Shown piece after piece: positions 2,862 to 55,508 of a stretch of DNA of 64,000 bases. Source of the DNA: Amoebophrya sp. A120. Its lineage: Eukaryota > Protista > Dinoflagellata. The first letter of the stretch is position 1; each line of letters begins with the position of its first letter. The notes under the pieces are model-generated. The model was not told where the DNA came from. It searched no databases and saw nothing but the letters and a program-made list of their open reading frames with translations. The stretch lies in assembly GCA_905178155.1 (NCBI GenBank), contig CAJINV010000005.1, forward strand, positions 4,071,556 through 4,135,555, in the 5' to 3' direction. The position numbers and the translations under genes are program-made.

Positions 2862-5800
2862 CTACACTTGTTCTTCCTGGTCTCTGCAGGCCGCCAGGTG
2901 TCTCAACCTGGCGTTTAGCTGCTGTGTTTGCGGATCAAACTCCCGCGCCGCGGAAAGCAGGTCCGCCTCTATTTGGGGGATGAGCTCGTCCGCAGGGTCT
3001 TCATCTTCGCGGAGTTTCATCGAGGCCTTGGGAGAACCCGACTGCGATGCCACGTAGTCACTCAATTTCTCTCGCACACTATCCAATAGCGTCTCTGTGT
3101 TCACGTTGCGCATGCGGCACGATTCTGTTGCAAACGTCGCAGCACCGCTGAGGGGCGGGAGAACTGGCGGATAGGAGGTGGAATGATCCGGAAGCTGATC
3201 GCTGCTGTGGTCCTGTTCGGCACTACCAGCTTGCAGGAGCGGGGTCCCTGATCAAAGTTCGATTTCTTTGCGGTGGGGACTGCTCAGCACAACGTGGTTA
3301 GCACCGAGACAAGCAATAATGTTACTGTTACATATAGTTATTACTACGATGGGAAGGAGATCCATAACCACGAACCCAATGTGATGGATGCCGTATATAT
3401 AATCATGGTACGGCCACGGCGTTATCTGTTGAAGTGACATCCTTGAGAGCTCGTTGTACCACATCACGAACATCCATAGCAGAGTGCTGGTTCTTACCTT
3501 TGGCATTCGGTGTGGGTTCCTTTAGTTTTTTGTGTGCACCGCGAGGACGAGCAGCTGGGTGTGGAGGTGGTCCACCAGTTGTATTAATACCGTCGGATTG
3601 CGTATGCGACCTGAAATCGCGAATTTCCGCGTCTGACTGCACCGTCGTTGAGGATATCGAACCGTCCGCGTTGAAGTATAAAAGCGGCCGGTTCTTTTGC
3701 GGCTGCCGCTGCTCGCTGCGCTGCGAATTGTCTTGCTCGGAAGGAGCTCCCACGTATTGCTGTGAAGCTCCTCTAGCATTTTGCTTGTGGTTTTGACCCT
3801 GCTTGTTTTGATTCATCGTGGTCTTCGCGTAATGCACTGCATTGTCGTAAAGTTGCGAGGTGGGATTCAGGTGCTGCACCGGGACGAACTCTTGTGGCGG
3901 AGCCGGACTGGTGGCACTTCTGTTGGTCGAGATAGCTGGGCCAGCTGCGGCAGGCGATTGATTCGTTAATATCTTCCGCGACCGACTGCTGCTGCTATCC
4001 ACTGCTAAAAACATGTCCGGTGGACCTGCAGGGATGCGACCTTGTGATGCGGATTTCACATCACACAAAAATTTGTCATGCGAGGAAACCAAAAGTTGCA
4101 CAATTTTTGCCACCGATGAAAGAAGGGCTTTGTGATGCGAATCTTTGCGCTGCATTGCAAGAAAGAAACCTTCTCAAAGCCTGTAAAAATGCTAGGGCGT
4201 ACATGCCAGATCCTGCTTGTTCTGGCTCAGGCAAAAGCTGCATCACAAACCTCTGCATCCTTCTAGACCCAGACATATTTCTTGCAGTGGATAGCTGCTG
4301 CTACTGGACGATTGCAGCTGTTGCTGCGTCGTCCAGAGACCGTGCGTATCAAGTGTAAAAATGTCTGGGTCTGGAAGATTCTGAGATTTGTCGTGCATGT
4401 TTTGCATGACCCAGGATGTCTGTAATGCGCGACCGCGCATCACAGGTTTTGAGCTGGCTTCCTGATGCCTACTCCGCATGAGAAACGCCATCCCCGCGTA
4501 GCACAAACTAGACTCCTCTTGCTGGTCATGCAATACAGATTTTTCTAGAGTCCAAAGTTAGCATCACAAGTTCCAATCTTCCAGACCCAGACACTTTTAC
4601 ATTTGATAGTGCGTCATTCGTGTTCTCTCTGCGCCGTCCTCGTCGCCGAGCCCTACTGCTCTCTTGGGACGACCACCTCCCGGAGAACTACCTCCAACTG
4701 GAACTGCAGCATCGGTGCCGGTGCTGGTTGATGACACAATTGTCTCATGCTGGTGGTGGTGACGATGATGGTGCTCATGTTCTTGACGATGTCCGCCCGA
4801 AACTGCCACGCTAGTAGCATCGTCACCGTGCCCGTGGTGGTGGTGGTGATGATGCCGTAGCTGTTCATCTTGACCAGAAATCGCAGTTCTACTCTCGACA
4901 ACTGCACCTGCACCCCCCACGACCTGGGGGTTGTAAGATTGGTGGTGATGGTGATGATGTGTAGCGTGCATGTTCATCGCGCTTCCGTCCACCGAGGTAA
5001 CATGCTGCATCGCGGTGTCTAGGGGATTTTTCATGCCAATCTGCGTCATCATAGTTGTACTGCTGCTCGTCGCCGACGCTGACGCTGTCGCACCCCCGGC
5101 GACAGAAGACGACGGCCGCTGCTTGGGGCTGTGCCGCACCATCATCGGAGAGCCGCCGCTCGCCGGGCTGTAACTGAGAGTAGACGAGGCCGCGGCCGGT
5201 CCGCCCGCAGGAGAAGCATGGTAAGAACTCGTTGGACCAAAAGGGCTGGGACCGCGAGGTTGGACGACAGCGCTTTGTTCTTGTTGCTGTAGGTGATGTT
5301 CCTGATGATATTCTAATTGCCCCCCTGGCCCTGCGACGCGTGCCATAATTGCAGTTCCACCTGGCGCGGCGGAGCCAGCGAACTGTTGAGTTGTGGCACT
5401 CGAAACCCCGCCGCGGCTAATGCTTGATGAAGTGCCACCGCCTACCACATGGTTACTCGGGTTCTTGGCAAGCAGGTTTAGGTACTGCTGCCCGAGGGTC
5501 AAGCCTGGCCCTTCTGGGCTGCGGGCTGTCGGCGTCGTGGGAGAAAGCTGAGGGCCTCCAGACGTGGAAATCAAACTTCCGGGTGACGCGGCAGCGGCCA
5601 GACCACCAGCCCCCGGCGGCGCGAATAGGGTTCCCGTGCCCGTCGTTCCGGCAGGGTAGTGGACTCCCTCCAGCCAGTAGTTGCCGCTCAGCCTACGGTT
5701 GTCGTCGAGCAAGGGCTGTGCGAGCAGCTGCTTCACTTTTGACGGAATCTTCTTGTATCGCGACGGCTGGGTGAACGCGCGATTCAGGTGGGAAATCGAC

Positions 5801-8008: not shown

Positions 8009-11000
8009 TCATCCCGCAGACAGGTGACTGCTCCCACCACCTGGTACGCCGGGCGGCAGCATGGAGGACCCAGCAGGTGGCCCACCTTGGTGCCCGGCAC
8101 CAGCGCCTGCAATGTTGCCGCCTGCGCCCCCACCGCCCGGCGCTCCGTAGGAGGATGCTCCTGCGCCGGCACCCGTGCTTCCGGCACCGCCCCAGCGTAT
8201 GTACTCCTCGGTCTCCGCAGCCTTGTATTCTTCGCTGAGGGATAGGACCACCTCTTTGGATTCGTCGAATTCGTCCAGGGACTCGGAAAACATGGGCTCC
8301 TGGCGGTAATTTTCCAGGAACGCGTTGCGGGACCGGAGCTTGTCGTACTGCTTGATGCAACGATCGTATCGTACGAAAAAAGTGTTTCACTGTAAGGATT
8401 TTGCAATTTCTGCATCACAAGTTTGCTCTACATCACAGAGAAAATTTGCCATGCTAGATTCCTAAGGGAAAAGACAGCTAAAAATCCATTGTCTTGCATG
8501 TGTAGCAAGACAAACACTTCTCAGATACAGTTTCTGCATTACAAGTTCACAGTGAAGCAGTTTTTTCTTGCGATAGATCGAACAGGCCCGCGATCGCCGT
8601 GTGGTTGGCCAGCATCAAGCCCGAGACCTTGTTCTGGTGCTGTACGTAGGGCGACTGGCGGGAGAGCGCCACCTGGATGCTCGCAGGGCCCCACCGGATG
8701 AACTTCGCTAATTTGCGCTCCCGAATCCGCTGCAGCGACCGGTGTACCTGCGTGGGGTCTACTTCGCCCTGGATGATGTTCAAAATGCTGATGTACACAC
8801 CGCGTCTCGTGCTGCATATGGAGGCGTCAGAATTGAAATTGACAAAGTTGAAAAATTTGTGATGCATAAAACCGATACCAGTTGGAAGCCCAATTTCCAA
8901 GCGGCGCATGACAAATCTCGACGTCATCGAAATCCAGTTTGTCATGCTGTTTAGTGAAAGAAGGCATCCTTTGTCATGCTACTTTAGCAGCTCTACCCCA
9001 AACCCGAAACAGGCTCACAATCGGCCTCACTTGCAATCCCTGCAGGACAGTCACTTCTAGCCTTGCATTTTATGCATCGCAGATTATTTCAAATTCAACT
9101 TTGTCGATTTCGATCCTGACACTCCCATACTGCAGCTGACCATGATATTCTTGGCGTGGAGCAAACGCCGCATCACGTCCAGAACCGTGGTCTTGCGGAC
9201 CTGGTGTACGTTTTTCCGATATTTCTCTGTCAGTGTCGATGTCATCATAAAGATCATGATATCTATGCATGATCTTCCTGTTCGTCTACTTAACAAGTAG
9301 CGCATGACATGAGATTCAATAGAGCAGGTCGTGGTTGTGGATGACACCTGTCCTTCTTGCTAGACATAGTTATTTCCATGCTTGTTTGCGCAGGCGATAG
9401 GAAAAGCCAACACCTCCACCTCCGGCCCCACCCGGTCAGAATGAAATAAGTAGAGCTGGACTGATACTAACATGACTCACCAGAGGACTACGTCATTGTA
9501 TGCCTGCCGCGAACAACACGAGCACTGCCTTGTCACTGCGTACCGATCGATGGTTGTGGTTCTTGTACAGTTCTGCTAGAAAGAGTGTGCATGCATGGAA
9601 ATAAGCAACAAAATTGAATAAAATCAAAATCTTTGCTACCGCGGTTATTTGTCGGTCAATCATGAGTGGAGTATAGCCGGTCATGAGGAAATGGCACCGC
9701 GGGGTTGGGATCAAAGAAGCCACTATCCCGACGAGATCGTTATTCATGTACGATGGATATCGCAAGGTGGTCGTTGAGGCGGCCATAACTGAAAGAATGA
9801 AGTATATTATATTTGTATACCAGAAAACTCAAACTTCTTTGTATGTGCTTCTGCTTTCCCGTGTGATATGGCTCCATAGACGGTCGAATAACAAGAAAGG
9901 AACTTGTTTTTTTAGTTTTCATTCTCAGCTTCAGCTTTAATACTGCAATCAATGAATGAATTATGAACAATATCATCCACTGCAACAAGCATGAGCAGAG
10001 ATTAGGACCTCCTGCTTCTACCTGTGGAAACTAGTGTGTTGGTTTGTGCGAAGGTTGGGTTCTGGAGCTTCAAGCGATCCACTGCAATCCGATTCAGTGC
10101 CGTGTTGTCCAGAACCACCACGCAATCGGAGTTCAATGCGAGGCGCTTCAGCGTCAGAACGCTGTTATACGGTTGCACCACAACGTCGGAGGTTTCGCTG
10201 GACAACAGCGGAAATACCGAGTACGTCATTATCAACTTCTTCGGATACCTGTGGTGTTGTTGAGGACGAAGGTAAACGGCGGGAACTAAGTGGAATGGCT
10301 TTCGGCGGGCGCGCGTCAGCATCGCATCTTTCGACAAAGAGAAAGACGAAGTTCGCCCGCACTCTTGCATGAAACAGCTGCATTTCAAAAAATGTAGGCT
10401 GCAGCTTGAGCTTCAACTTCGTGCTCCATAGAAGGACATGAATGAATCATGTCGCAGTCGCATAAGAATCGTAGTTAATATAAAAAGTTTTCGAACACGA
10501 ACTACATGCTGATCCCCATCCGTTCCCGTTGCCCTTTGAAAGTAGCCACACTATATTACCAATAAGCTTCAGCTTTTCTTACCCGCAAGGACCGCAAGAC
10601 TAAACAAGAATTTTAGAAGAAGCGAATAGCACGGGCACGGGGACAGACCAGAACTTCTACAAGAATAAAACAAAATTATTTATGCGACGTCTCTCGCTCG
10701 TGCTCCCACCTTACCTGTCGTTTATGTTTTCCAAAATGTGCGACCCCATGCCGGAACCGGTGCCACCTGCGATGCGGTGTCCAATGCAATTATGCCCGCG
10801 TATGGAGCGTTGCGAAGCAAGGTTTTTTTTGTGATGCAGGTGTGTGGATGAAATGGACGGCGCGGAAGTTCTCATACAGGGCCAAGCATGAGGAGAAAAA
10901 ATTCTGACGCGGCGGCTGTGCGCTACCGTAGCACACATCAGCCACCGTGTGCGTAAGGCGTAACAGTTATGCTTATGCATGACGCACGAGAAACTACGAC

Positions 11001-13449: not shown

Positions 13450-16177
13450 TCAGCAGGTGAAAAAGCCATAAGCGGCGTACAGTAGGCCGACAAAGCCGGT
13501 GTTTACGTAGTTCCAGCTGCTGGTATTCATGATGTACATGGCGAGGAGTACGCATATGAGGGCGTACATGCCTTTGATGCACGGGAAGCGTTGTACGAGG
13601 GTGATGGCCAGGGGGATAAACCCGAGCGAAAACTGGATCAGGAAATAGGCCTGCGGCATCGGTTCCGCGTACGAGCCCAGCGACAGGTAAGATAGGTGCG
13701 GGCTGCGCAGGGTCGCTTCCACCACACTCGCTATGGGAGCCGCGCTCGTGTCCGGGAGCCTTTGCGCGGTGATGGGAAGGTAGACGAGCGAAGCGGTCTG
13801 CAGGGCCAGCATCAGCAGAAACGTGCGCTCTTTCTGGAACAGCGTCCGCGTGAGGGGCCACGTCTGTGCAATTTTATATTTCTTTTTTGCCTACTTTACC
13901 AGAGTTGCTTCGAGTTGGAAAGTCGTGCGCAACAAGGATCAATATTTCAGAATTTTTGCATCGGAAGCACGATTGTTTTCGCTTTTCTGTATATTGAAAA
14001 GGAACGAAAAAGTTCAAAAAAATGATGATTTGCACATTCATTGGCTACGTCAGTCAGCTCTAAAAAAAAATAAATACGCTGGGATAGCGGATGACGTAGA
14101 CAACTCCGAGAACTAGGCCAAGAGTGTACTTGCCCAGGGTTAATGGCCATTGTGCTGTGAAGAGAAGTATCAAATGTAAAAGTGTCTGGGTCTGGAAGAA
14201 TGCAACTTGTCATGCTAAATCTGAAGCATGCAAAAATCTGTGTTGCATGATTGCCAAAAGTCGTCCAGTTTTGACCAAGTCGTGAGGGAGTTTCTCATGC
14301 AGGATAGGCATGAGAGAGATCGCACAGAATCTGTCGTGCTAGGTCCTGCATTCCAGGCCTCATGGGTCATGGAAAAGCTGCATGACAAATCGCGCATTCT
14401 TCCAGACCCAGACATATTTGCAATCCATAAGAAGCAGCATGAGGAGGAGCCAGCCGTGCCATCGGGGTTCGACAGTGAAGGTCTGCATTTGAAGAAACTC
14501 ATCGCGAATCTGTGAGGGCGCGATTTTGGGATTCTGAAAGTGGTACAGGCACTGCAGGCATACTAGCGTCGGCTCGATGCCTCGCAAGATGGGAATTGGG
14601 CTGAGACTATCGACTGCAAGAAAGGGTGTCTTGGACAGCAAAATAATATACTCAATTTATTTCGGTGGAGTTGAAGATATCGATCATTATCGTGACCATG
14701 AACAAGGACGACCCCTGTTTTCTGCATCTTGAGATGACTGCTTGTTCAAAGTCCACTTACTTTCTGCAAGAAGATCACGTTCCGACATAATTTCTATGTC
14801 CAGTAAAAAATGAGGACTGTGAACAAATCTATCACTTTTGGCGTTCGGGAGCGAAGCCCTCAGCTGAAAATGCATTTGCACAAGCCTTCCTCCCTACATG
14901 AGCTGTAAATCTGCTGAACCAACTGACATCCTTGTGTTCGATACGCCCCGCCTTCAGGGGTAACGGAGAGCTCAAAATCCGTCAGCCTGAAGTAACTCTG
15001 GAAAGCAACCATGGCAGCGTGCAGAACGTATACAAGGGGAAAACGATTTTGCCACCGTAATCTACTTGCGACGTCATGCACCGAGTCCCGCAAGACCAAG
15101 AGCAAGACGCGCACGTTCTTCATAGCGTGCGCGTTCCCGCCAGTAAAAACCTATTCGATAGCCATACACTCATGATTTGCCTTAAGGGCGGCGCACTGCA
15201 GATTTTCTCTCTACTGACACAAGCTAGTCCTAGTTCGTTGCATTTCGTGGTCATGATGATGGTGTCATGGGTAGAATTTGGGTGTCGTGAGACAAGAATT
15301 ACGGTGGTGCACGTGCAGTATCTGTGTGCGATAAACCCAGAAACCGCTTCAAAAAAGTACTGGTTCCGATAAGCGATTCATACGTGTACCTGTGGCAGTT
15401 GTGTACAAGTTTTTCTGTTCCTACAAATTTCCATGGATTTTGATTTTCTATTTTAATGGACTGTCTGTGATGGTTTCCCAGCGCACGTGCTGCTGCTGGT
15501 ACAACTTTGCACCCCCATGCTGGTGTCGAGAATTGCGACAGTTGTTTTTCTATCGCGAGAGATGAAACCTGACTAAGTACAACTAGCTCAGCAATTGAGT
15601 TTAGTGTGCACGAAAGAAAACAATATTGTAGTCCAGCAAACAACAAACAAAAATGAAAATTGTTCTATCTTTATCTTTTTCATTAGCATTACCCGAATAT
15701 AATGAGCATGCTCCCGATGAGGCACGTGCGCAAAAAGCCCGAGTACGGAACGAACCAGTGTAGTATTGCGCTTGTGATCAGTTGGTTGTTACTGCTGTAG
15801 GCGCCACTGGTCGGTGCTGCGGCGTTAGGTGTTGCGCTGGTATCGGCGCCGCCGCGTGTTGTGCTTGTTTCTGGTCCCCGCCCCGTTGGGGAGCTGACGG
15901 CGCGACTTAGGGAGTCCAGATTTAGAACCCATCCCCTGCTGGTGTCAACATAGCCATACCAGTCGAGCCACCAAACACCCCACATCATCAGGAAAAAGGA
16001 GAAGCAGAAGGGCGGCGCTTTTTTGGTTCGGCTGAACACATGCATCAGAGTAAACACGCTCTTACAGCAGTCTTTGCAGAACTGGGCCGGGCCCTTCTCT
16101 GCAGCCGGGTTCCGAACTGCCGACATAGGTTTTCTTTTCGCAGTTACGCTGGAATAAACAGGTTTGAATCTCGACAA
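13450..16177 (-). CDS. Multi-pass membrane protein of unknown function, multi-exon
   Basis: Hydrophobic ORFs 15689..16177, 14860..15123, 14360..14641 and 13450..13812. Introner removal gives WHGWLLLMLL|LFTAQWPLTLGKYTLGLVLGVVYVIRYPS, then GT-AG intron 13864-14077 joins in frame to TWPLTRTLF. Confidence 0.65.
14168..14429. mobile_element. Introner family 1 (right end of TATGG type)
   Basis: TATCAAATGTAAAAGTGTCTGGGTCTGG ... CCAGACCCAGACATATTTGCAATCCATA; TSD AGAAG. Confidence 0.95.
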
Positions 16178-21256: not shown

Positions 21257-21334
21257 GCTGAGGCGCATTCTCCTAGCGCAGGAGATGTTTTTACAGCCGA
21301 GTCATATTCTCCTAGTGCAGGAGCTGTCTTTACG
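21257..21334. repeat. 39-bp tandem duplication
   Basis: GCTGAGGCGCATTCTCCTAGCGCAGGAGATGTTTTTACA followed by GCCGAGTCATATTCTCCTAGTGCAGGAGCTGTCTTTACG. Confidence 0.8.
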
Positions 21335-22992: not shown

Positions 22993-23280
22993 GGTCTGCG
23001 AATTTTCAAAATTTTATTTTTTATTGGCTGCGAAGGTATGCAAGGCTCGACCGTCTCAACAATTCTACCCTGTTTTTGGCTGCAAAGGTCCGCGGAATTT
23101 CAAAGTTTTATTTTTATCGGCTGCGAAGATCCGCGAAACTTTAAAGTTTTATTTTTATCGACTGCGCGGGTCCGCGAAATTTCAAAATTTTATTTTTATC
23201 GACTGCGCTGGTCCGCGAAATTTTAAAGTTTTATTTTTATTGGCTTCAAAGGTCCGCGGGGTTTTGGCTTTCTATTTTCT
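22993..23280. repeat. 41-bp minisatellite
   Basis: Units resembling CGCGAAATTTCAAAATTTTATTTTTATCGACTGCGCTGGTC start at 23091, 23132, 23173 and 23214, with a partial at 23255 and a degenerate unit near 22997. Confidence 0.9.
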
Positions 23281-24814: not shown

Positions 24815-24880
<66 letters not shown>

Positions 24881-42500: not shown

Positions 42501-45500
42501 CTACTACCGTCTCCTGTAGTTGCCAAAGATGACAGAGTCCCCGTTATCTGCGATGCGACGGCTTCCGCCGCCTGCTTGTCGCTCGGAAAAAGAAACCAGG
42601 ACGGGCTATCGTCTTGGAGGTCCGGGGCATCGTAGTCCTTCGATGCGGTCGAGGAAGGAAAAAGACTCCAAGAGGACCTCGTCTCGCTCCCCTGGCTGTC
42701 TGTGCGATCATCCGCAAGGTTCTCCGTCCTTCCGTTTACCGCGAAGAGAAATGGCAGAATTTGGGCCGCAATGCTCACTGGGGTGACCACGAGTGTAAAG
42801 AAAACGAACCCCACCAAAGCGTACACACCGCCTATGATTCGGGACTCCCTATCCGATGTGTCAAGGTTTGACCAATCCACGTCCACCACGTCGGGGGCAG
42901 GTTCCATCCGCAGTTCGTTTTTGATTTCGCGCTCCAGTCGGAGTAGCCGTGCGTGCTGGCGCCGAACCTCTTCTTCGCGGGGTTTCAACATCTTTTTCCG
43001 CACAAGGATCTTTTCTCGTTCTTTCCGGGTGAGGCTGACGTGTTGCAGGTAAGAACTGTGGTCGCGCGCGCGGAAAAACATGCAAGGTCCGGAAGTGAGA
43101 CAGAACGACACCCGGCTGAATATGGCATTCTCAATTGTTACATTCTCAACTGTTACACGGATTTGTCATGCAAAATTGCTATCAGCCTCCACTTGATCAA
43201 GGTGGTTAGCATGGCAAATTTTCGAAGGGCTAAGCAGCATGATGATCTGTGGCAAATCTGTGACGCGAAAGCTGCAATATTGCCACTTTCACTAATTGCT
43301 GTTCTTGCATTACAAATCCATGCAACAGCTGAGAATGTAACGTTTGAGAACGCCATACTGAAGATTTCAGTGAACCAAGAAAAGAAGCGAGCGAAACGCT
43401 CCAAGCAGTCCTGGACTTGCTCCCAGCAACTCATTTCGTCCTCTTCTTCCCCGCTGGTTGCGACACCTCCTGGAAGTTGGACAGCGCTGTGGTCCACTCC
43501 GAGGTCGCCCGCCTGCAGCAGAGGGACTACTCCCTGATGATCTCCTAGGATCAGGGGAGTAGATTTTATGTTGTCCTTGTCGCCGTCATCCAACATCGCA
43601 TTGCCGTCGAGGCGCCGGCTCGAGTGGTCCACCCTGCTTGGATCCGTCGCAGCCCCTGTCATCTCTCCTGCGACGCGAGGACCCCCGGCCGCGAGGGCGC
43701 GACCTGCCGGTGAGTGCGCCGCCCGACCAGCTGGCTCAGCTGCCCGCTCCCCGCGCGCGGATGTCAGTGGAGAGGGATGGTAGTGTGCGCCACGCGCAGA
43801 CATGATGATCTGTGGCGCCGGGCTCTGTCTACCCGAACTGCGCGCGCTCGCGGACAAACGGTCGATGGCGGTACTGTCTCGGTACTCTGTTTCTCCTTCC
43901 CCGGCTCTGTTGTTCGCGGCCGACAAGGCGGCGAACTCTCTGCGGATACGGGCAAAGTAGTCCTCCGTGAAATACTCATCGCGCGGCGGGTCGCAGAGCA
44001 GGTTCTCCTCGCACGCCGCGGCCTGCCACCCGCGGCACATCTCCTGCACTTGTTTCCAATCCGAGTATTTCTTGCGTTTCAAGATGTTCCAACGCTGCAA
44101 GGCCTGTTCCTTGGCCTTGAGACTGTTGAACGTGACAAATGCCCGACCCGTTCCGTAAAACGGCTTCCTCTTCACCAGTTCCTTCAGACTGCGCCTCGCA
44201 GCCTTCGTCTGCCGCCAGTAGTAGCAGTTGCACAGAGCGTAGTACACTAAATTCAGCGGCAACAGGTAGTCGGAGAGCCAGGGTTCGGGCGCGGCGTGGG
44301 TCTTCACCTCTTGCAATAAACCGACCCGGTCATCGTCGCGGGGATCCGGCCCTACTATCTCGGGTGCAAAACCGGCTTCGCGCTCCTCTGCCAGTACTTC
44401 AGTGTCACGTCGTGATTGCGCCCCCTCTTGTTGTTCCGAAGCAGCGATGAGGACCAAATCATTGCCGCTGTCCGTTCTCATCTGGGCAAACGGCTCCCTG
44501 AAGATGTTTGACTTTTGTTCTGTAGTTGCAGAAACGGGCAGAAAAGGTTTGACGGGACTTTCCACACCTGCCAATGCCGTCTTCGTGGTCGGGTAAGGTG
44601 AACTACTCGCTTCGTGTGACGAGGCGCTCCTCTCCGCAGCGAGCGCAGGGCTCTGCAGCTGCTGGCCACCGCTTTTGCTTGCCGGGCTGGAGCTGGCAGC
44701 AGTATGCGGCTTCATCTCGCCCGGACTTTTCAAGGCGAAGTCTTGCTCCGAAGCACGCGGGTCCACGTCGGAGCCAGCCACGCCACCCTCCCCTGACGCT
44801 CCTCCGTTGATAGAATGCTCCACATAAGTCGCTTCTGCTGCTACGGACGGTAGATGCGACTCTTTGCTGCCTTGCTTTGAAACTGTGCTCTTTTTACTCG
44901 ATGAAGACGCAGCTCCTCCGCCTCCCGCGTTCTTATTGGACCCCTTGAAAACAAGCGACTTGCCACCCGCCATTAGTCTACCAAACATGCTGGATTTCTT
45001 TTTCTCTGTGCTGCCCTTATTTGTCCTGGCGCTCAGAGGATGAAGATGTTGACTACTGCTTTTATTTGCCTGCTCACCTCCTGCGACGGCTGAGCCATCG
45101 TTCGACGAAGCTGCTATTTCTGCACCGCTGGTCGTCCCGCGTGTCGTCAAACCCGGGGACAGGCGGTCTGTTGCGTGGCCCACGACGTCAACCTCTTCCA
45201 CAAGTGGCGGCGTGTTGGCTTCCGTCTGCCGAGCGGGAGTTTGATCCCCTGCGTGGCGCGCCAAGTTGTTCTGGTGGGTCGTTTGTTTGTTCCCGCGTCT
45301 CTTGTTGCGTAGAAGTTGTTCATCTTCTGGAGCACAGGAGTCCGCTAGCAGCTCTTCCTGCGAATCGTCTGCGGTGTCCACATTAATCCGAACGTCCAAG
45401 AACTCGTCACTCTGCGCCCGTTCTTCCGAGGTACCGAGTGGCTGATAGCCCCCCTCGCGCGTAGAAGTAGGCCGCCCCCCGCCACCAAACATCGAGTACT

Positions 45501-48500
45501 GAGCAGACCGTGTTGCTTTATTCCGGTCCGTCTCGTCATCAGACGAGAACTCGTCATCGGGGTCTTCCGCAGCACCGCACGCTAATATGCCTTACAAGAA
45601 AAATGGGTCTCCGTCTCATAGGATGCAAACTTGTGATGCGGATTGATTCTGGAGGAACCCGAACGGCCAGAAATCAGTGTGACGTAGCCAGCAAAAAATG
45701 CTGTGCGAGTATTTTTGAGCGCAGGAGAGGGCATCTCTCATGCGCAGGACCAGGCATGGAGAAGCTGGAGCGTCCTCCGAAACCGAATTTGTGTTTGTCC
45801 TCCTCTGTGCGCATTTTTAGAGACCTTCTTGTAGATCGATGCAGATGTTGCAAAATAAACTGCATTTACATAGTACCTGCTTTCTTCCAGCAGGAGACCC
45901 AAACATATTTGCAGTTGATACATGGGCAGCACCAGGCGCAACAATGTCCGAAACCCTCCACCAAGCGTTTGATGGTGGAGCTCTTCTTCTTGGCAGACTG
46001 GTACCAGGAGGCATACACGTTTATCGCAAGAAAAAAGTGTTACAGTTACACACTGTGTTGCAAGACCGGCAACACAGATAACCTCTCTCATGCGGGAAAT
46101 GCTTGGGATCCTTCTTCCTGTTTTCCCTTGTGACCTTCGCATTACAAGTTTTCCCTGCCACACAGAGAAAATTTGTGATGCAGAAACTCCAACAAATGTG
46201 TAACGGTAACACTTTTATTTTTCTCGTGATAACGTTCCGGCGATCCTTGCTATCTTCGTAGTGCCGAAGGGCGTCGTGGGCGTCCGCGAGCGCGGGCACG
46301 ATCTGCACGGAGAGGATGTTATGGGAGCGTCAGGATCGAAGTCGACAAAATCGAAAAATTTGTAATGCACAAAATCGATGTCACTGTCAGTTAGAGATAG
46401 AGCCTCAGTTTCCAAGTGGCGCATGACAAATTTCGGGAGCACCCAAATCCAGTCTGTCATGCTGTTTGGGGAAAGAAGACTGCTCCTGTCATGCTACTAT
46501 GGCAGCGCATTGCCTTTCCCTAAACAGGCTTACAATCGGCCTTATTTGCCTGCTCCCCAATACAGGCCTCCAGTGCCCTACATTTTACGCATCACAAGTT
46601 TTTCGATTTTGTCGATTTCGATCCTGACACATCCATAGATGTTGCGGTAGCCGTAGTCCTGCCGCAGGATGCGACAGAAATCGGAGGCGGACAGCTTTTG
46701 CGCCTCCTGATCCTTTGGCAGGCCCGTGCACAGGAGCGTGTACATCTGCGCGAACTGGGTGATATCCTGCGTAACCCGTCGTCGCTTGTCGTGGTCTATC
46801 AAATGCAAAAATGTCTGGGTCTGGAAGAATGCAAGTTTGTCATGCTTGTCTGGCATGACTCGAGAATCTGTGTTGCACAGGCACGAAAAGGCCCTCTTAC
46901 CTGTCATGCAAAAACGCAGTTTGCCATGCGGAATACGTAAGACATGGCAGCCAAAAAATTTGTCATGCGTAGCTGCGTATTGCAGTGCGTCTATCATTCA
47001 CTTTTAGCATTACAAGTTTCCAGACCCAGACATATTTGCAATCCATATGGTCCTGCTTTATGCGGCGCCCAAAATAGAGAAATAGGAAGAACAGCAACGC
47101 GGACTCGAAAAAAAACAGGCAAAACCCGAACCCAAGCTGCTCCGTGGTGTTTATTCCGCCCACCTGCTGGGTCGTGGTGGCGCCAAGAAGGCGACTCGTC
47201 TGAAGTGATGTTCCGAGGACGACGTCCTGTGCGCTCGACGTGGAGGTCGTGCTGGTCAGTAAAGTTCTGCTGGGCTGCAGCCCGTGCGCAAGAAGGGCGG
47301 CAGTACTCGTATGCTGCAACTGGTCCTCACCGGCCAGGGACATATTCGAGACGACGCCGCGGGCCGCCGCCGCGTCCCGAGGCAGTTCTTGCACCGCTGC
47401 GCCAGCAGGTCCAGTTAGGTCGTAGGTGCTGGTGGCGCTTCCCGAGGTGCCGGTCGTGGCCCCGTCGGAGGAGGACGATCCCGCGAAGGCGCGGGCGGCA
47501 ATTTGCGTCAGCCACAGGGTGAGCTCCCACACATACACACACAACTGCTGCAAAACCACCAGGAAGTACTTCTGCAAGAAGTAGACGAACTGCACAAGCA
47601 GATGGTTGGCGAGCGGATGACCGTGCAAAAAGGACAGCACCCAGTCCAAAACGAACGCGCACCCGAAGGCCTGCGCGAGCCGCCACAAAAAACTCAAGTA
47701 CCCGAGCGGAATGAGGGCGACGGGATGGGAGCGGTCGATAGTGAAGAAAATCTGGAACAGAATCCACTGGTAGGGGCTCTTGAAGTGCTTGTTCAACAGC
47801 TCAAACCGGTTTCTTCGGTGGAAGAACACGGCGGAGAAGTTATTTTGTTCGCCCCCTCCCGTTATCGCGGCCTCCGCCACCTCACCGCCTCGCTCAATCT
47901 TTTCTCCTCGGATCCAGTCCCAGATCTCCTGTTCTGTCGCATCAATTATCCACTTTTTTGATGTTTCTTCTGTGGCCGGTTGATGTTCTCCTATCAAATG
48001 TAAAAATGTCTGGGTCTGGAAGATTGCAACTTGTCGTGCTAAATCTGCAGCATGCAAAAATCTGTGTTGCATGATTACCAAAAGTCGCTCAATTTTGACC
48101 AAGTCGGGAGGTAGTTTCTCATGCAGGATAGGCATTAGAAAGTTCTCGCAGAATCTGTCATGCTGGCTCCGGCATTCCAGACCTCATGGGTCATGAAAAA
48201 AGCAGCATGACAAATCGCGCATTCTTCCAGACCCAGACATTTTTACACTTGATATCTCCGCTCTGGGGCTTATTCACCAGTGTCTGCCGTTCGGCCGGCT
48301 CCTGCGTCAGCGCGGCGTCCGCAGAGTCAAGAATACCTTCCCCAGGAAGCCGTGGCGTGTTCGATTCGCTTGACGGCTTGGAGGATGCGGTCTGGTGCGT
48401 CCCTAAGACACCACCTCCTGGCGAAGTTCCAGCTCCCAGTACAGCGGCCGGGGCGCTCCCGCTGAGTCGCTCCTGTTGCAGGAGCGCACTCGTCGTGGTG

Positions 48501-51352
48501 CTGCCATTCAGAAGTATTGCCGGGCTCGCAGAGATGACGTGACGAGCAGGCGGACTGTGCAACGATGCGCTCGCGGTGTCCTGTTGGTGCTGGTAGTGCA
48601 TCACCTCTTCCAGCTGCGCATCGATATCAAATGCAAAAATGTCTGGGTCTGGAAGGGTTGGAACTTGTCAAGCTAAATCTGCAGCATGCAAAAATCTGTG
48701 TTGCATGATTACCAAAAGTCGTCCAGTTTTGACCAAGTCGGGAGGGAGTTTCTCATGCAGGATAGGCATGAGAGAGATCGCATAGAATCTGTCATGCTAG
48801 GTCCTGCATTCCAGACCTCATGGGTCATGGAAAAGCAGCATGACAAATCGCGCACTCTTCCAGACCCAGACATTTTTGCATTTGATAATCGACCTGCGAA
48901 AACGATCCCTGGCGTGGTCTCGATGACCCGGCCGGTGAGGGGCTGGTCCTACTTGCAATCGCGCCCTTTGCGTGGCCGGACGGGGACGAAGTATTTGGCG
49001 GCTGCTGGGGTCCTCGTGGATGGCTCGTCGTACGGCCCGCTTGGGAGGAAGCAGGAGGCGAACAAGTGCCGCTCTGCGGTACGCCGCTCCCTCCTTTCTC
49101 GGCTTGTCTCGACGAGGACCCCTCTGGCGCTGCCCGGGGAGGCGTCACTCGATGCGCGCCCTCCGCGTAGTAGTACTGCCGAGGGCTTCTGGCGAACGCG
49201 TCGCTATTTGTGTTTTCGTCCGGAGGTTTTGCGAGGACGGGCGCAACTGCGAGATGACGAGTAGACTCAGGCACGAACAAATCATCCGCATTTTTTTCAC
49301 GACTCCTTCCTCCTTCAGTAGCCCTTGCCGATACCGTGTCGGGTGAGCGAGGGGGCGACATAGAAGGAGACGTCGGCGCCACGGCGCCCGTGGCTGCGTG
49401 GCCCTGAAGATGTTGTGCTGGTACTAGTACCTGGGTCATTTCCACGACCGGGGCAACCCCCGACGAGCTGGCAACTACAGCATCTGCATCGCCCTCGTGG
49501 CGAGCGGGGCCTCGGCCTCGCAGCTGCTGCTCCTGGTTCATCGCGCGGCTGCTCAGAAGTAGTGGCTGTCGACTTGTTCCCGGAACTGAGTCGGTTCCCT
49601 CCCCAGGGGACCCACTTCGTCGCGCGCTGTGCATTTCTTGCAGAGGTATACCTCCTCGCGGCTGCTCAGACGATACCGGTGCCGTCTGCTGCAAGTCCGG
49701 GCTGCGGAGATGATCGCTTGGGCGCGCGGTGATCGCAAAGCTCCGGCTATCAAAAAACGCCTTGAACGGGTTCATGAACTTCTCCGCCGTGGTATCAAAA
49801 CGACAATAAATCCCCCTTCCCCATACACAAAACCAAGTTTCTGTTGCTGGATTTGGATCGATTTCCGCGCACAAATAATTTAGGTCTGTACTGCCGTAAG
49901 GAATTGCAACCAGATAGTCAGCCTGGTGTTTCGGAGCATGTTAAAGGTCTAGCAGTGTGACATGACAACCGCCCGCGCAGCATCGTAAGCTAGCCCGACA
50001 GCATGGCAAAGCGCCTCCACGGTGCGGGGCGCACCTCTCCGCTTCCCATTATTTTGCAGGACAAAGCTGATTTCTTGTGACCACAAATCTGCGGAACAAG
50101 CTGAAGTTTTCCGTAATATGCGCATGGGAGGGACGAGAGATGCTTCCTCACGATACGTGGTTTCCGAAAACGAGAAGGACCCAAACGAGCCGGCGTGAAG
50201 CTGCCCGCCGGCGTCCTGCTCGTCCTGAGGAACCGCGGCGTCACCACTGTTGGTTGCCGCAGAAATAGACGCTCCAGGATTTGCCGGGCCGATCTCCCGA
50301 CCCTCCGCCTTTGCTCGGGCGGCGTCTTGTCTCTGGTCCAGCACCATAAAAAAGTGGTTTTCCCACATTTCAATCATGGTCAAGATCAGCCGACGGCGCT
50401 CGCACTCCTGCGGTTTGGAGGGATTCAAATTGAAGATCTGTTCGTATAACCGCAAGATCATAAATCCAAGCGGGGTTGGCGTCCCTTCAAAAAATTCTTC
50501 TTCTGTTGCACTGCTTTTTTTTGCTCCTACTCCTTCTTGCGTTGCATTTTCCTTCTCATCCTTCTTTTCGGGTTGGGACGTGGAAAAATAGCCGCAGCAC
50601 CAACCCTGATTTACGTCGCGGGTCGATAAGCCGTCGTTCGCATTTGTCGTGTTCGCGGTTGCACTTGTTGCAGAAGTGCTGTCTTGTTTCAGATGCTCCG
50701 CACCGACAACGTCGTCGTGCTCAGCGGATGGATTTTCTCCACCGCCAGCTCCGTGAGGACCCGTTGCCGCAGCGCCCGTGGCATCGCCCGTGATGGCGAC
50801 TGCCGCCGAAGACGTGAAAACAGTGGCATGCTGACTCTGCCGGTAGAATTCATCTTTTGCGTAGAATTCATCCGAGGATGCATTGTAGAGTTTGTAGAGA
50901 TTGTTCTTCCTCCGCTTCCACAGGTTACACACGTAGGTTACGATCACAATAATAGCACACACTATCAACTGTAAACGTGTCTGGGTCTGGAAGAATCCAA
51001 CTTGTCATTCTGATTTTGGATTCTAAAAAAATCTGTATTGCATGAGCAGCAGAGGGAATGCAATCTTTGCTACGCGGAGAGGGATTTTGTCATGCGCAAT
51101 AGGCATCGCGAAGCCCTCAAAAACTCTGTGATGCTAGGGCATGCATCACAGATATCATGGCCAATGCAAAACATGCGTGACAAGTCTCAGAATCTTCCAG
51201 ACCCAGACATTTTTACAGTTGATACACACCACGGCGTTGCAAGTAAAAAAGAACAACAAGAACTCGTTGTTGTCATTCAAGTCGAGCATTCCGAGCATGT
51301 TCCTGCCGTCTCCTCGTGCCCGATGGTCCGGCGGCGGTGAGACGTCGCCCAT
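36507..51352 (-). CDS. Second OSCA/TMEM63 (CSC1)-like channel, very long with low-complexity insertions
   Basis: Starts MGDVSPP...FFFTCNAVVC|AIIVIV. Motifs YTLLCTGLP, GTGRAFVTFNS, EPAPDVVDVDWSNL, QYLPTLIVIFIN, FDFGYWYAF and KFGVDKYCF. Nine introner-derived introns restore frame. The 3' exon joins near 37.3-37.8 kb and 40.3-41.0 kb are not fully resolved. Confidence 0.8.
36601..36855. mobile_element. Introner family 1
   Basis: TATCAACTGTAAAAATGTCTGG ... TTACATTTGATA; TSD GTTCG; opposite orientation to its close relative 27405-27655. Confidence 0.95.
43121..43357. mobile_element. Introner, family-6-related
   Basis: TATGGCATTCTCAATTGTTACATTCTCAACTGTT ... AACAGCTGAGAATGTAACGTTTGAGAACGCCATA; TSD CTGAA; TEIFS|RVSFCL. 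Confidence 0.93.
45586..45920. mobile_element. Decayed family-1 introner, now a GT-AG intron (45582-45921)
   Basis: Right end AGACCCAAACATATTTGCAGTTGATA, eroded left end TATGCCTTACAAGAAAAATGGGTCT. TSD lost; the in-frame GT-AG intron is element+5 (CCP|SCGAAED). Confidence 0.8.
46022..46231. mobile_element. Introner family 3
   Basis: TATCGCAAGAAAAAAGTGTTACAGTTACAC ... GTGTAACGGTAACACTTTTATTTTTCTCGTGATA; TSD ACGTT; DRRNV|YASWY. Confidence 0.93.
46320..46637. mobile_element. Introner family 2
   Basis: TATGGGAGCGTCAGGATCGAAGTCGAC ... GTCGATTTCGATCCTGACACATCCATA; TSD GATGT; YRNI|LSVQIV. Confidence 0.95.
46797..47047. mobile_element. Introner family 1
   Basis: TATCAAATGCAAAAATGTCTGG ... TTTGCAATCCATA; TSD TGGTC; IKQDH|DKRRR. 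Confidence 0.95.
47992..48254. mobile_element. Introner family 1
   Basis: TATCAAATGTAAAAATG ... TTACACTTGATA; TSD TCTCC; QSG|EHQP. Confidence 0.95.
48625..48887. mobile_element. Introner family 1
   Basis: TATCAAATGCAAAAATG ... TTTGCATTTGATA; TSD ATCGA; SQVD|AQLEE. Confidence 0.95.
50963..51224. mobile_element. Introner family 1
   Basis: TATCAACTGTAAACGTG ... TTACAGTTGATA; TSD CACAC. Confidence 0.95.
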
Positions 51353-52697
51353 TTCGATGTCGATGCTTTGCTCTTACGGTCGTGCGAGGATAAAAATCAG
51401 CTTTATGGTGCGCCGCAGGCCTTGTCCTGTCCGGTTGGACAGAACACAGGTGGAGCAATGCTCTTCACTCTTTTGCTTTGTGCTCCCACGAGACTGATGC
51501 ATGGATACGCCGAGTTTTGCCGCCCTACTGTTCCTTCATCTTCTTTAGCATGACAGCGCTGGCTTTTCGTGTGGGCGGATCCATACCAAAACTACGCGGG
51601 GGATGCGATTCTGTAAGGTCGCGCCGTCGCGACCCATTTTTTGTAGATCGCCGGTAAGCTTCTTCTGCGTTTCTCATGACATGAGGAAAATTTCCGGCGC
51701 ATATTTTTTTCGTCTCTATTAAGTTCAACAAAAGACAAAGAGGCGCCGATAAAGCACGGGCAGCATGCATTTGATATTTATTTCGCGTCGTGGTCATAAA
51801 CACGTGCATGCATGTAGTTCATCATATGATGGTAACAGAAAAATGACGAGAGCAGGGAGAATCCAGGCCATCCGGGCAGGGTGGATCTCACACTGCTGCG
51901 CTCACTAGCCTCTCCGTGTTGCCTGCAGCTCTACCTTTGCAGATCAAACATACGAAGACACACGCCACGTCTTTGCTTCGCAACGGCAGGAGTCGACTCA
52001 ACCAGTATACTCTGAGTCTGACCTTGTTTAACAAAACAGTAAAAGAAGGAGAAGATGCACGAGACAACCAAATGCACATCATTTTGAAGTACCCAGGGGA
52101 CTGACAATGAAATCTCTATCTCGCCATGCATTTTCATGGAAAAAAAGAAACGCCCACGCGTTCACGATAGCGACATCCTGAGTCGCTGTCTCTCTCATCT
52201 CGTGAAGATAGATACTTGTGTTCTTTTTTTCGAAGCCTAGAGTTTCAGTAGATTATCGAGCAAGAACACTCGAATCTGAAAGAATATATCAATGATTGAC
52301 TATATTAATTTATACATCCGTAGCGTTCTTAAATTAAGAACGGCGTTTTCAACTATGTTCCAAACCCGAAGAGTGATGTTTCAGCGTTCCCTTTGCTTAT
52401 TTCTGCTGTCCGCTAAAAGTAAAACGAAACCATTCCTGGGGACAAATATGTATATGCCTGGCCATTTGGCGCGCTCACGTGGCGGGTAGTACTTTTTCAT
52501 TCTGATGTATTTAATTCATTCTTTTTGTCTACTCCGTAAAACAGAAACGAAGTCGGCACTTTCTGACCAGATCGAGCGCAACTCAACCTCAAAGCGGCGC
52601 AAGTCACCCACCAACAAAGACATGGGATGCGAAAAATGATTGATGGAACGCATTAAGGCCGTTGTCTACTTCCTCCTCGCGCAAACATCGCCAGCAA

Positions 52698-53038
52698 TAT
52701 CCTGTGCAAATGTGCCTAGGGGGTAGGATATTTGCTTCGAAGCTCGAAGCTTTCAGCACAAAAGGCGAAAGTTTGCCACGCAAAAAACGCGAGCTTGCGT
52801 GAAGGACCGAGCAGATTGAAACTTTTCAAAAAGGTCGGCAATTGTCGACCTTTTTCAAAAATTGCAATCTGCTCGGTCCTTCACGCAAAGTCACATTTTT
52901 CTTTTAGAGCTAAATCATTTCTGCTACGCCAGAAGCTGGTGTAGAAGCAGGTGAAGAAGTTGGTGTAGAAGCTGGTGCAGAAGCTGGCGAGTATATTCGT
53001 CAGCTTTTCCTACCCCCTAGGCACATTTGCACAGGATA
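52698..53038. mobile_element. MITE with TAT...ATA ends and 5-bp TSD, apparently intergenic (family 7)
   Basis: Perfect 31-bp TIR TATCCTGTGCAAATGTGCCTAGGGGGTAGGA; TSD AGCAA; internal palindrome 52795-52888; short tandem AGAAGCTGGTGT repeats at about 52931-52990. Confidence 0.92.
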
Positions 53039-53654
53039 AGCAAAGTGCACATGCAACTTCCGAAAATCTTCCATGGATGAAATTTCAAACTCAAGAAGAA
53101 GAAGAAGTCTGTATCTACTTATGACAGGTGCGCGTGCGCACTTGATGACAGAAATATCGCAGAATACCATCCCCAGTATCGTCGTCGCATACCACGTTCC
53201 CTACGTGTCTTCTTCCTACAACCATGAGGGTGTGCTCCGTGCGTTGCGCTCGGCTGCCTCTCATTTCAGTTTCAGACTCAGGACGATGATGAACCATTGC
53301 TTCGTATTCCATGTCGAATCGGTGTAGGTGTTGATCTTCATGTCTTTTCCCCCAGCGCGTCAGGGTCGCCGGAGTCTGGCTCTAGTGGAATTTCCTCGAT
53401 GATCCTTTCTAGCATGTTCAGAGTCTTCGCTCCGGAATTCTTGCTGTTTCGTGCAGAAAATGCCTAGCATATCTTCAAGCGTGACTTTCAGTTTACCCCC
53501 GCCACGCATTGCATGCTGCTCCTGCATAGTAAAATAGAATACTAATCTTCATTGCGCGCAAGGCAGAACTTCCATCGCATGTTTCACTTTATTCAGCCAT
53601 TCATCGCCAACATTTCAACGGAAAAAATACTGATATCATAAAAAAATTCATCAC

Positions 53655-55508
53655 TTACACATACACTGGCTGTTTCCTGCATGATACCGAGTCAAGAAGT
53701 GCCAGCCTGTCGGCTGTGAGGTCGCTCCCAGTCCCATCGCCACCCGTCACTCTACTAGAACTAGCTCTCAAGTTCTGGTGTTGAAGATCACCTTCCTGCT
53801 GCATTAGCCCAGATGTCGTGTCTACGCCGCGAGAAGAGCGAGCGAAGCTCAATCTCCCCATGGCCATTTGTGCGCCTACCGATTTGCCAGTGGTACCGCC
53901 GGAGAAGTGAGACTGTGTGCGCATTTTTCGACTTCGAGGCGAAAAGCACCACGACCAGAGGACGAGCTTGCTCGATTCGTGTTCCTCGAAAAATGCTGGA
54001 GGTTGCATGAATGAATACAATACAACCAAAGATATCAAAAGATATTGACGAGGCGGGGGGATCACGCGGCGTACACACGCTTACTCACAGTCACATAGAA
54101 ACATGAGGCATTATCAACATCATTTTTGTGAGAACAGAAGAGGTGTGCGCTAGTTGTTCATCTTGATGCACAATTTTCTATTTCTTTACGGTCGTAACCG
54201 CAACCAAGATCTTGGTTTGAAATTTTTTCTTGTGGCACGTGGACACTTGTTCAGATTTGATATCGAAAACGGACCGTCGGGGGCGGCTTCAAACTGCGTT
54301 CCTGCTAATCTGCCCTCGTGAGTGGAGGATCGGGCTTGCGATCTGGGATCTGCGTATCCGGAGAAGCACTCGGCGTGGTACCTGGTCGATATGCGGGACC
54401 CGCGTCGCTCGGTGATGGGCTCCCCAACTTGCGTGAAAGGTTTTCGACACTCGCGGCACATGTGGCCCAGGTCACTTCTCTGCGCCAGCCGGTGTATCAA
54501 CTGTAAAAGTGTCTGGGTCTGGAAGATTCTGACACTTGTCACGCACGTTTTGCATGAGCCATGATGTCTGTGATGCATACCCTAGCAATACAGATTTTTT
54601 GAGGGCTTCTTGATGCGTATTCCGCATGACAAATGCCTTCTCAGCGTAGCAAAAATTGCATTCCCTTTGCTACTCGTCATGCAATACAGATTTTTTTGGA
54701 ATCCAGATGCAGCATCACAAGTTGCATTCTTCCAGACCCAGACATTTTTACATTTGATACGGTGCTGATAGTCCCAATACATCGTCTCGTCCCCAGCCCC
54801 AATGGTTGTTTCGCTGCACGCAAGGGAAAATGCCTTCCCCGACGCTGCAACGCTGGGATGCAGCGAGGGCGCTGCTGACCAGGTCGACCTTCGGGTCGTC
54901 GCCACGGATGCCGTGTCGTCTTGTTGTTCTATGCAAAGAAAAAAGTGTTACAGTTACACATTGTGTTGCAAAACACACAAGCGAGACGACTTCTGTCATG
55001 CGCAAAATGCTTGCGAGTCTCGTTTCGTGTGTGTTTAGTTTTGCCTTATGATCTCTGCATTACTCTGTCATGCGGGACAAAGTTTTTATTGTGATGCTGA
55101 ATTCACTACAAATGTGTAACTGTAACACTTTTTTCCTTGGATATGTTGGGTCGCACCGCCAGTAGCTCCTCCGGGGCGATCATCTCCTGAGGCACCCTGC
55201 AGCTCTGCTCCGTCCGGCTCTTCGGGCTGAATGGCTTTGCGCGACGCCGAGGTTGCATTGCCGCGGCCTCGGCGAATAAGGGTCTCGTCCGCCCGAGATA
55301 AGAGCCCACCCCGGCGGGCAGCTCCGGCTCCATGATCAGCATCGGAATTTTTGGACGAGGCGGTGCTCGTCGCGGTCACGGCTTTCGATGGCTTGGAAAA
55401 TCCTTTTTCTTCCAAGAGCTGCTGTTGACGCTCGACGAGCGAAAGCCTTGTTTTTTTCGGATTACTACTAGTCGTTCGGTGGTTTGAAGAAACTTCGTTC
55501 TCAGACAT
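53655..55508 (-). CDS. Protein with CxxC...HxxC zinc-finger-like domain
   Basis: After removing two introners: ...GATQ|QQDDTASVATTRR...YWDYQHR|LAQRSDLGHMCRECRKPF...RYHAECFSGYADPRSQ. The 3' end is uncertain and may extend to about 53.1 kb. Confidence 0.7.
54495..54759. mobile_element. Introner family 1
   Basis: TATCAACTGTAAAAGTG ... TACATTTGATA; TSD CGGTG. Confidence 0.95.
54930..55143. mobile_element. Introner family 3
   Basis: TATGCAAAGAAAAAAGTGTTACAGTTACAC ... GTGTAACTGTAACACTTTTTTCCTTGGATA; TSD TGTTC/TGTTG. Confidence 0.92.

Follow-up and report, generated by a model that had tools for sequence, protein, structure and literature searches.

A window of 64,000 nucleotides from the dinoflagellate Amoebophrya sp. 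A120 (contig CAJINV010000005.1, positions 4,071,556 to 4,135,555), which is the whole stretch of DNA analysed here, raises the question of how closely related intervening elements can be removed from genes of a single strand when they are inserted in both orientations. The elements are introners of 210-340 nt with TAT...ATA termini, inverted ends of about 30 nt and a flanking 5-nt direct repeat, and each of the ten coordinates named in an earlier note on this DNA proved to be the first position of a TAT...ATA element bounded by terminal inverted repeats (TIRs). In these ten elements, 25-29 of the first 30 nt pair between the ends, and the 5-nt direct repeat outside the TA is perfect in eight and matches at 4/5 positions for 17732 and 27405. 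The window holds 23 structures with TIRs and repeat, as compared to 0 in each of 20 triplet shuffles. In 144 fetched loci, 293 elements were found, 231 of them with a perfect 5-nt repeat, other repeat lengths occurring in 0-6 elements each. No strand could be called for 65 of the 144 loci because of their shortness, and those whose call was weak or mixed were set aside, so that 182 of these elements were used for orientation relative to the host strand and, together with 30 from the window, make up a set of 212 elements with a host-strand call. In the base profile of this set, for which TAT at positions 1-3 was part of the detection rule, A occurs at positions 11-15 in 147-197 of the 212 elements, as in the A120 introner motif, and the profiles of the two element ends are near-identical over 16 nt. 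The 212 elements include 20 families with at least two members, and such repeated families are likewise known from A120 introners. In five longer elements (457-1031 nt), no stop-free run exceeds 151 codons, and no autonomous partner combining matching ends with a transposase was found in the 144 loci (408 kb) and the window. The interiors of the elements share short palindromic motifs. With their inverted TAT ends, direct repeat, removal at borders other than GT-AG and repeated families without coding capacity, the elements of the window match the A120-type introners as described in text passages of Farhat et al. (2021; PMC7789003).

That all host genes lie on the minus strand, as the earlier note had claimed, was confirmed. 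Removal of the element together with one repeat generated a minus-strand stop-free frame of 144-724 codons within the tested span at 10/10 of the named sites, and when the element was left in, no stop-free frame was obtained at 9/10 of them, 27710 keeping 193 codons. A coding model, whose training set came partly from the same tiles, called the minus strand for 11/11 window tiles. The minus strand also agrees with the GT-AG intron 53522-53687 and with a loose end of nine T at 52308 in one run. Pfam matches on minus-strand frames were obtained for 3 of the 19 exons scanned (Ank twice and RRM), none of them in an element-bearing gene, and the other 16 gave nothing. Removal is needed for frames of 914, 1090 and 778 codons, the first being the host frame of the introner at 46022-46231.

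The earlier observation that close relatives lie in both orientations was borne out by global alignments of the interiors only, from which 38 nt had been trimmed at each end, and which were used to assign relative orientation. All pairs named earlier came out as opposite, with interior identities of 88% for 17732/18135, 88% for 27405/36601, 85% for 50963/54495, 80% for 27076/54495, 78% for 4347/27076, 77% for 4347/50963 and 70% for 27710/46797. Equal orientation was found for 27076/50963 (83%) and 4347/54495 (75%). According to anatomy and alignment, the large family is represented in orientation F at 3996..4293, 14168..14429, 26720..26980, 27076..27337 (also by frame) and, with its opposite partner 36601, at 27405..27655 (also by frame), and in orientation R at 4347..4608 (also by frame). 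A second family comprises 28373..28690, which is opposite to 8817..9129, 46320 and 56720, and the introner at 27710..27962 is opposite to 46797; these assignments rest on anatomy and alignment as well. Single reading frames hold both orientations, as the 778-codon minus frame contains 3996 and 4347, and 17732..18047 shares a minus-strand coding frame with its partner 18135..18439 (alignment and frame). When orientation was tabulated relative to the transcript for each family, as the earlier note had proposed, the ratio was about 50:50 over the 212 elements and 31:34 in the largest family. Both orientations were present in 14/14 families of at least four members and in 17/20 families of at least two members, and close pairs among the 212 elements were of equal orientation in 91 and of opposite orientation in 90 cases. 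Literature searches over text passages revealed no prior statement on introner orientation in Amoebophrya; in the text passages of PMC7789003 element orientation is not analysed, and the passages on orientation concern genes.

Direct evidence for removal came from RNA contigs of four runs, belonging to one sample of one study, which show joints and not efficiency. The four runs were taken to be RNA, a guess based on the intergenic bins 51666-52269 being at depth 0 in 4/4 of them. Two raw RNA runs labelled as the same species contributed 3 and 2 reads on 20 kb, too few to be informative. In the region 46230-55260, 8/8 catalogued elements were removed with exactly one repeat. These are 46320..46637 of the second family (2/4 runs), 46797..47047, which is opposite to 27710 and lies in a weakly covered gene (1/4 runs), the F elements 47992..48254 (3/4), 48625..48887 (2/4) and 50963..51224 (1/4, depth 4.9), 52698..53038, which was precisely removed from a 3' untranslated part (stop ends at 53338) in 4/4 runs, the R element 54495..54759, the opposite partner of 50963 (4/4), and 54930..55143, with a 4/5 repeat (4/4). 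Likewise, 36601..36855 (orientation R; joint from 36595 to 36856 in run X4, depth 21.9) and 43121..43357 (joint from 43115 to 43358) were removed with one repeat. Among the joints listed for 25900-45899, 2/9 catalogued elements were bridged, and 26352 was joined on one side. Members of the large family were therefore removed from RNA in orientation R (36601, 54495) as well as F (47992, 48625, 50963). Direct joints exist for 4/10 named elements (36601, 46797, 50963, 54495), and for the other six removal rests on reading frames. None of ten RNA-confirmed TIR elements can be read as GT-AG in any register on either strand. The joined form was the main contig form in RNA, and a retained-intron piece (53913-54292) was seen at depth 4 in run X5. 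The donor at 53687 was joined to its paired non-canonical end at depths of 7-42 in 4/4 runs and to a canonical AG acceptor at depths of 6-11 in 3/4 runs. For 40339-42130, a model with one exon had 31 solutions, all of them lacking the expected donor, and the rebuild of the 2056-nt part of a contig (26348-32310) was ambiguous and was dropped.

Read in the direction of the transcript, the cut lies 1 nt before TAT and 4 nt after ATA, as is pinned by old introns in which the repeat has decayed. The non-canonical minus-strand intron 37315..37791, whose junction allows no slide, starts 1 nt before TAT and ends 4 nt after a decayed ATA, and 53443..53687 (GT...GC), likewise on the minus strand, with a pinned junction and a donor also used in a minor form with the canonical AG acceptor 53522, is cut at exactly -1/+4 as well. 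The non-canonical minus-strand intron 53927..54263 allows -1/+4 within a slide of 1 nt, a fourth old intron, 33167-33420, whose position follows from an exact length constraint of 628 nt in a contig, fits this register too, and the register is limited on one side by 54930 and on the other by 26352. The four RNA-anchored old introns all retain U at +2, A at +3 and A at -7, while the +3/-6 pairing is lost in 3/4 of them; U+2/A+3 is donor-like, as in U2-spliceosomal introns. Table S4 of PMC7789003 has T at +2 in all nine top non-canonical classes of A120. A rule of GT or GC donor with AG acceptor does not hold here, +1 being G in 59, A in 43, C in 37 and T in 28 of 167 perfect-repeat elements, with no preference for G beyond the flank composition, and GT-AG is found in the -1/+4 register in 7/167 and in some register in 11/167. 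In imperfect ends the T at +4 was changed more often than its partner A at -7 (8 vs 1 of 192), an asymmetry that was weakened by relaxed detection (10 vs 3 of 235, p = 0.09; 9 vs 2 without one misregistered row). Repeat mismatches showed a weak polarity (p = 0.02 when pooled, 0.29 when single mismatches were taken alone), and their AT-drift polarity (9 vs 17, p = 0.17) did not pin the register. The removal signal is symmetric, and its reading is polarised.

The earlier note had suggested a symmetric signal made of hairpin or palindromic motifs, and the equal stems of both orientations, the matching end profiles and the removal of either orientation support this. An end-to-end stem forms on folding in either orientation (-114 and -113 kcal/mol; z = -8.3 each). 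End pairing is kept in the four RNA-anchored old introns (shuffle p = 0.047, <0.004, 0.053 and 0.003), in 4/4 of which it is stronger on the sense than on the antisense strand, and two GT-AG introns have none (p = 0.94 and 0.70). Among four old introns known from models only, two have the better pairing on the antisense strand; one of the four, 29811, had been entered 1 nt off. In young elements, G-U and A-C mismatches on the sense strand were equally frequent (208 vs 204), revealing no visible selection on RNA pairing.

We lean towards the reading that non-autonomous inverted-repeat elements, inserted in either orientation, are cut precisely from RNA by a modified spliceosome that reads both mirror-image ends. 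Insertion would be strand-blind and brought about by a transposase of the cut-and-paste or integrase type, which would leave the 5-nt duplication. Pairing of the ends in the pre-mRNA would bring the cut sites together, the end read first would serve as N-U-A, a donor-like signal with U at +2, A at +3 and a free +1, and the end read last would provide the A at -7 as a candidate branch point, the acceptor probably being set by distance and not by AG. The intron would take with it one nucleotide from the upstream repeat and four from the downstream one, which means that the coding sequence would be exactly restored, and orientation would cease to be invisible once either end lost one of the two signals. 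Judging from the sequences of four old introns, a branch A at -7 is possible; lying within a 30-bp stem it would require unwinding, which counts against a spliceosome, and so do the free +1 and -1/-2 bases, which to our knowledge are far from any known spliceosome. For A120, the text passages of PMC7789003 report U2, U4, U5 and U6 snRNAs and 83/89 spliceosome proteins, which favours this reading, and state that U1 snRNA was not detected, which again counts against it. A more specific form of it, which we put forward tentatively, is a U1-independent, structure-guided spliceosome for which the inverted ends replace splice-site recognition, pairing defining the intron together with a donor of free +1 and a branch A exactly 7 nt from a rule-free acceptor. 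If so, any TAT...ATA element with its 5-nt duplication would come as a ready-made intron that leaves no scar, whatever its orientation and target sequence. The refuting condition set in the earlier note, a branch point on each strand, cannot distinguish between the models, since with inverted ends the two strands finish in identical stretches of ~30 nt and share whatever branch A lies there.

The main rival, possible though rather doubtful in our view, is a non-spliceosomal RNA enzyme, either endonuclease plus ligase or a second machine as proposed for euglenids, that cuts at fixed offsets from the stem and releases either a circle or a linear piece. The stability of the stems in both orientations, pairing that is kept in old introns and absent from GT-AG introns, the lack of a terminal dinucleotide rule and, as far as the text passages of PMC7789003 go, the missing U1 snRNA would all suit such an enzyme, and the euglenid stem, whose introns exit as circles, also lies nearer the 5' than the 3' cut (+4 with -6). 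However, one donor serves a canonical AG acceptor and a paired non-canonical end, in contrast to Euglena, where part of PMC12501133 describes hybrids as rare. Moreover, U+2 and A+3 agree with a canonical donor and persist where they no longer pair, which also speaks for the spliceosome. Internal branch points on each strand, away from ends that serve transposition only, could draw on the palindromic motifs shared by the interiors, but they are improbable, as unrelated families with unrelated interiors have the terminal pattern alone in common and the acceptor lies at a fixed distance from the end.

Three further explanations were considered. RNA polymerase jumping between the repeats over a DNA cruciform would be orientation-blind and would suit the perfect repeats of young elements, but we regard it as very improbable because repeat-less junctions are exact, a retained-intron piece is present in RNA and the four RNA-anchored old introns favour G-U pairing on the sense strand. 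Template switching of reverse transcriptase across hairpins between direct repeats is a known artefact, young elements have exactly this anatomy and all RNA evidence is derived from cDNA. Nevertheless, three RNA joints share only 0-1 nt (37315, 53443, 53927), the frames of 914, 1090 and 778 codons require removal and the joined form is the main contig form, making such an origin of the joints more improbable still. For removal at the DNA level, which the earlier note had offered as its other option and which would take place in some life stage, the TA-bounded IESs of ciliates provide the comparison, and the transposon-like ends, target duplication, TA termini and orientation blindness recall them; in addition, the window may derive from the DNA-like run X1, which may represent one life stage, contigs drop rare forms, and joints are known only among those listed. 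This idea found no support and is the least probable of all. Gapless single-copy contigs of run X1 (depth 25-27) span 28665-36624 and 36831-43150, contain 30349, 33167-33420 and 37315-37791 and reach into 36601 and 43121, so that in this one DNA-like run introns removed from RNA are present and not absent as IESs would be. Furthermore, both TAs are lost on removal while one 5-nt repeat stays behind, the register of the cut depends on the direction of the transcript, and in RNA alternative acceptors of one donor and the retained piece 53913-54292 occur.

The introner system as such is already known, and a sharper, testable cut rule is added here. Text passages of PMC7789003 describe A120 introners with TAT followed by 7 nt and an A run, 3-5-nt direct repeats, a length of about 240 nt, non-canonical borders, RNA support, co-oriented genes and a hairpin model; they state that more than 60% of Amoebophrya A25/A120 introns lack GT-AG borders, and they leave the removal route open. 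The legend of its Fig. 3 calls the borders variable or unknown, whereas the pinned junctions here place them at -1/+4, and the figures themselves may show the register. Part of PMC12130899 reports TIR-flanked A120 elements with LTR-integrase-like homology and without Ginger termini. The earlier assertion that most introners need strand-specific signals was too strong, as introners with TIRs and target duplications forming introns in either orientation are published for Polarella (bioRxiv 10.1101/2020.10.14.339549) and, via the review PMC10228655, for Aureococcus (Huff et al. 2016). In the parts of both sources consulted, these carry or co-opt spliceosomal-type GT/GC/GA and AG sites. In contrast, the elements studied here need no dinucleotide pair, and they show no bias (31:34), whereas the Polarella/Aureococcus classes described in those parts favour one orientation. 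Nonconventional introns of euglenids, according to parts of PMC11282704 and PMC12501133, resemble the present ones in MITE-like origin, end-to-end stem, TSD-like repeats and a longer 3' cut offset, but their stem pairs +4 with -6 and bears a CAG/CTG motif, and they were shown to leave as circles. The euglenid pairing of CAG at +4 to +6 with CTG at -8 to -6 is not found in our elements, in which the stem starts at +2, paired with -5, and with TAT/ATA. The MITE-derived introns of Fritillaria borealis (bioRxiv 10.1101/2025.08.15.670264, in part) are alike in non-GT-AG borders, TIR origin and precise removal, for which the U2 spliceosome is reported to be necessary, but unlike ours they have fixed AG-AC/AT ends and a conserved U1. 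Harmless insertion without target motif or preferred orientation would explain how the elements came to flood coding sequence. Orientation blindness together with the fixed -1/+4 cut leads to predictions at the level of single nucleotides, namely for U+2, A+3, A-7 and end pairing, and gene finders can use the register to position borders that the 5-nt repeat would otherwise leave ambiguous.

Each of the ten positions named in the earlier note (4347, 17732, 18135, 27076, 27405, 27710, 36601, 46797, 50963 and 54495) is the start of an element of 250-320 nt, with TAT at its start and ATA at its end, a terminal inverted repeat of about 30 nt and, beyond the TA, a flanking 5-nt direct repeat. The window catalogue comprises 30 elements, 23 of which passed a strict test that yielded 0 in each of 20 shuffles. 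Their end profile (TAT, seven variable bases, then an A run) is the one by which the text of PMC7789003 defines Amoebophrya A120 introners, and it makes Amoebophrya A120 the probable host. That paper already describes the elements with their repeats and puts forward a hairpin model; the introner system itself is already known. More-decayed introners, beyond the strict scan, lie at about 18650-19053, 29812-30137, 10900-11209 and 45585-45920, the first being kin of the 17732/18135 family in the same gene.

The earlier report of close relatives in both orientations is real and well supported, as interior-only alignment confirmed every opposite pair (70-88% identity). Taking out the element with one repeat opens the minus-strand frame across all ten named sites, and the frame is closed at nine of them when the element is kept in; a single frame holds opposite orientations at 3996/4347 and 17732/18135. 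A motif scan of another assembly provided 144 loci (408 kb) with the same families (identity up to 96%) and 293 elements. For 182 of these the host strand of the locus was called with confidence, by a method that gave minus for 11/11 window tiles. In these 182 elements plus the 30 of the window, orientation with respect to the host strand is random: the largest family splits 31:34, each of the 14 families with at least four members occurs both ways round, and close pairs number 91 same versus 90 opposite. Same-family pairs inside one locus, a control free of strand calls, were 20 opposite versus 8 same in the fetched loci and 42 same versus 32 opposite in the window; the opposite excess of the fetched loci, absent from the window, is possibly due to chance. 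Longer elements (631-1031 nt; L063 4013-4984, L056 2990-4020 and L042 3094-3724) share their ends with the large family, lack a long reading frame and are possibly nested or internally expanded.

The elements are removed precisely and at the RNA level. Four sets of RNA-like contigs, all from a single sample of one study and with an intergenic depth of 0, skip all eight elements of 46230-55260 together with exactly one repeat. Elements 54495 (orientation R), 52698 and 54930 were skipped in four of four runs, 47992 in three, 48625 and 46320 in two, and 46797 and 50963 (orientation F, an 85% relative of 54495) in one; those with low run counts sit in a gene of depth only 3-6. Both 36601 (R) and 43121 were skipped in one 7119-nt contig. 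A GT-AG reading was obtained for 0/10 of these skipped elements in any register on either strand. Since 52698 lies 3' of the stop codon, reading-frame selection does not account for its precise removal.

The joint of a young element can slide within the repeat, and its position is fixed by older introns with a decayed repeat. At 37315-37791 and 53443-53687, where there is no slide, the intron starts one base before TAT and ends four after the decayed ATA in transcript direction. This -1/+4 register fits within one base at 53927, fits 33167-33420, whose position follows from an exact length constraint of 628 nt, and is bounded from one side each by 54930 and 26352. The cut register is thus fixed and polarised at the pinned sites, and a polarised reading of a symmetric element points to an RNA-level step. 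Four old introns (37315, 53443, 53927 and 33167) retain the +2 U, the +3 A and the -7 A, three of them having lost the +3/-6 pair; the +1 base is free across elements. U at +2 agrees with Table S4 of PMC7789003, which has T at +2 in 9/9 top A120 non-canonical classes, and the text of that paper calls A120 intron borders variable. Among imperfect ends, +4 was altered more than its partner -7 (8 versus 1 of 192; 10 versus 3 of 235, p 0.09, under looser detection), only a hint that -7 is better kept. The two ends of the element at 56720-57034 differ: in transcript direction the 5' one reads TAC and the 3' one is still ATA, and imperfect copies at the fetched loci mostly share this polarity. One locus (L003) holds the sole copy with C at +2, a single case in which a preceding G makes a GC donor; GC is the commonest non-GT spliceosomal donor.

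End pairing is retained in four RNA-anchored old introns, more strongly on the sense strand, and is absent from two GT-AG introns tested alongside. Young stems showed no G-U preference (208 versus 204), and predicted stem energies were -114 and -113 kcal/mol for the two orientations. Donor 53687 uses two acceptors, a major one at 53443, a non-canonical end pairing with the donor, and a minor canonical AG at 53522, with a ratio of 53443-53687 to 53522-53687 of about 5:1 in the RNA-like run X4.

The earlier note had deduced either a symmetric signal or DNA-level removal; the symmetric signal holds and DNA-level removal does not. In the DNA-like run X1, which represents one stage only and from which the window may derive, depth is flat near 26 and single-copy contigs traverse RNA-removed introns and enter 36601 and 43121; excision from DNA is the least probable explanation. 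Scarcely more credible is that the joints are template-switch artefacts, and skipping of the element by the polymerase is only marginally less improbable. Removal through internal branch points is also unlikely, if slightly less so.

We rather favour removal by a modified spliceosome. Insertion would be blind to strand, with a 5-nt duplication; in pre-mRNA the ends would pair into a stem in either orientation, the first end would be donor-like, the last would supply a candidate branch A at -7, and the acceptor would be set by distance. A euglenid-like non-spliceosomal enzyme is a possible but less probable agent; the closest mechanistic parallels, in the parts of these sources consulted, are euglenid introns (PMC11282704, PMC12501133) and Fritillaria introns (bioRxiv 10.1101/2025.08.15.670264). 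Introners of Polarella and Aureococcus, as far as described in the portions consulted, also work in either orientation but, unlike those here, have spliceosomal-type dinucleotides and some orientation bias (bioRxiv 10.1101/2020.10.14.339549; PMC10228655). Orientation blindness, the fixed -1/+4 register and the -7 A are unstated for Amoebophrya in the literature searched and in the parts of the PMC7789003 text consulted. What the analysis adds is a concrete cut rule that opens the splicing chemistry of this system to test.

The minus-strand gene at 25900-35452, spanned by one 4660-nt RNA contig, encodes a multi-membrane-spanning protein, possibly OSCA/TMEM63-like, with no Pfam match in the two exons scanned; many of its well over a dozen introns are decayed TAT...ATA elements. 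A 41-nt tandem array of 4.4 copies (23078-23258) and a stretch of 32 GA repeats (24815-24879) lie in a region where 24073-24152 matches locus L009 at 94%. Minus-strand exons at 1-1674, 61573-62442 and 62852-63604 encode RRM domains and ankyrin repeats.
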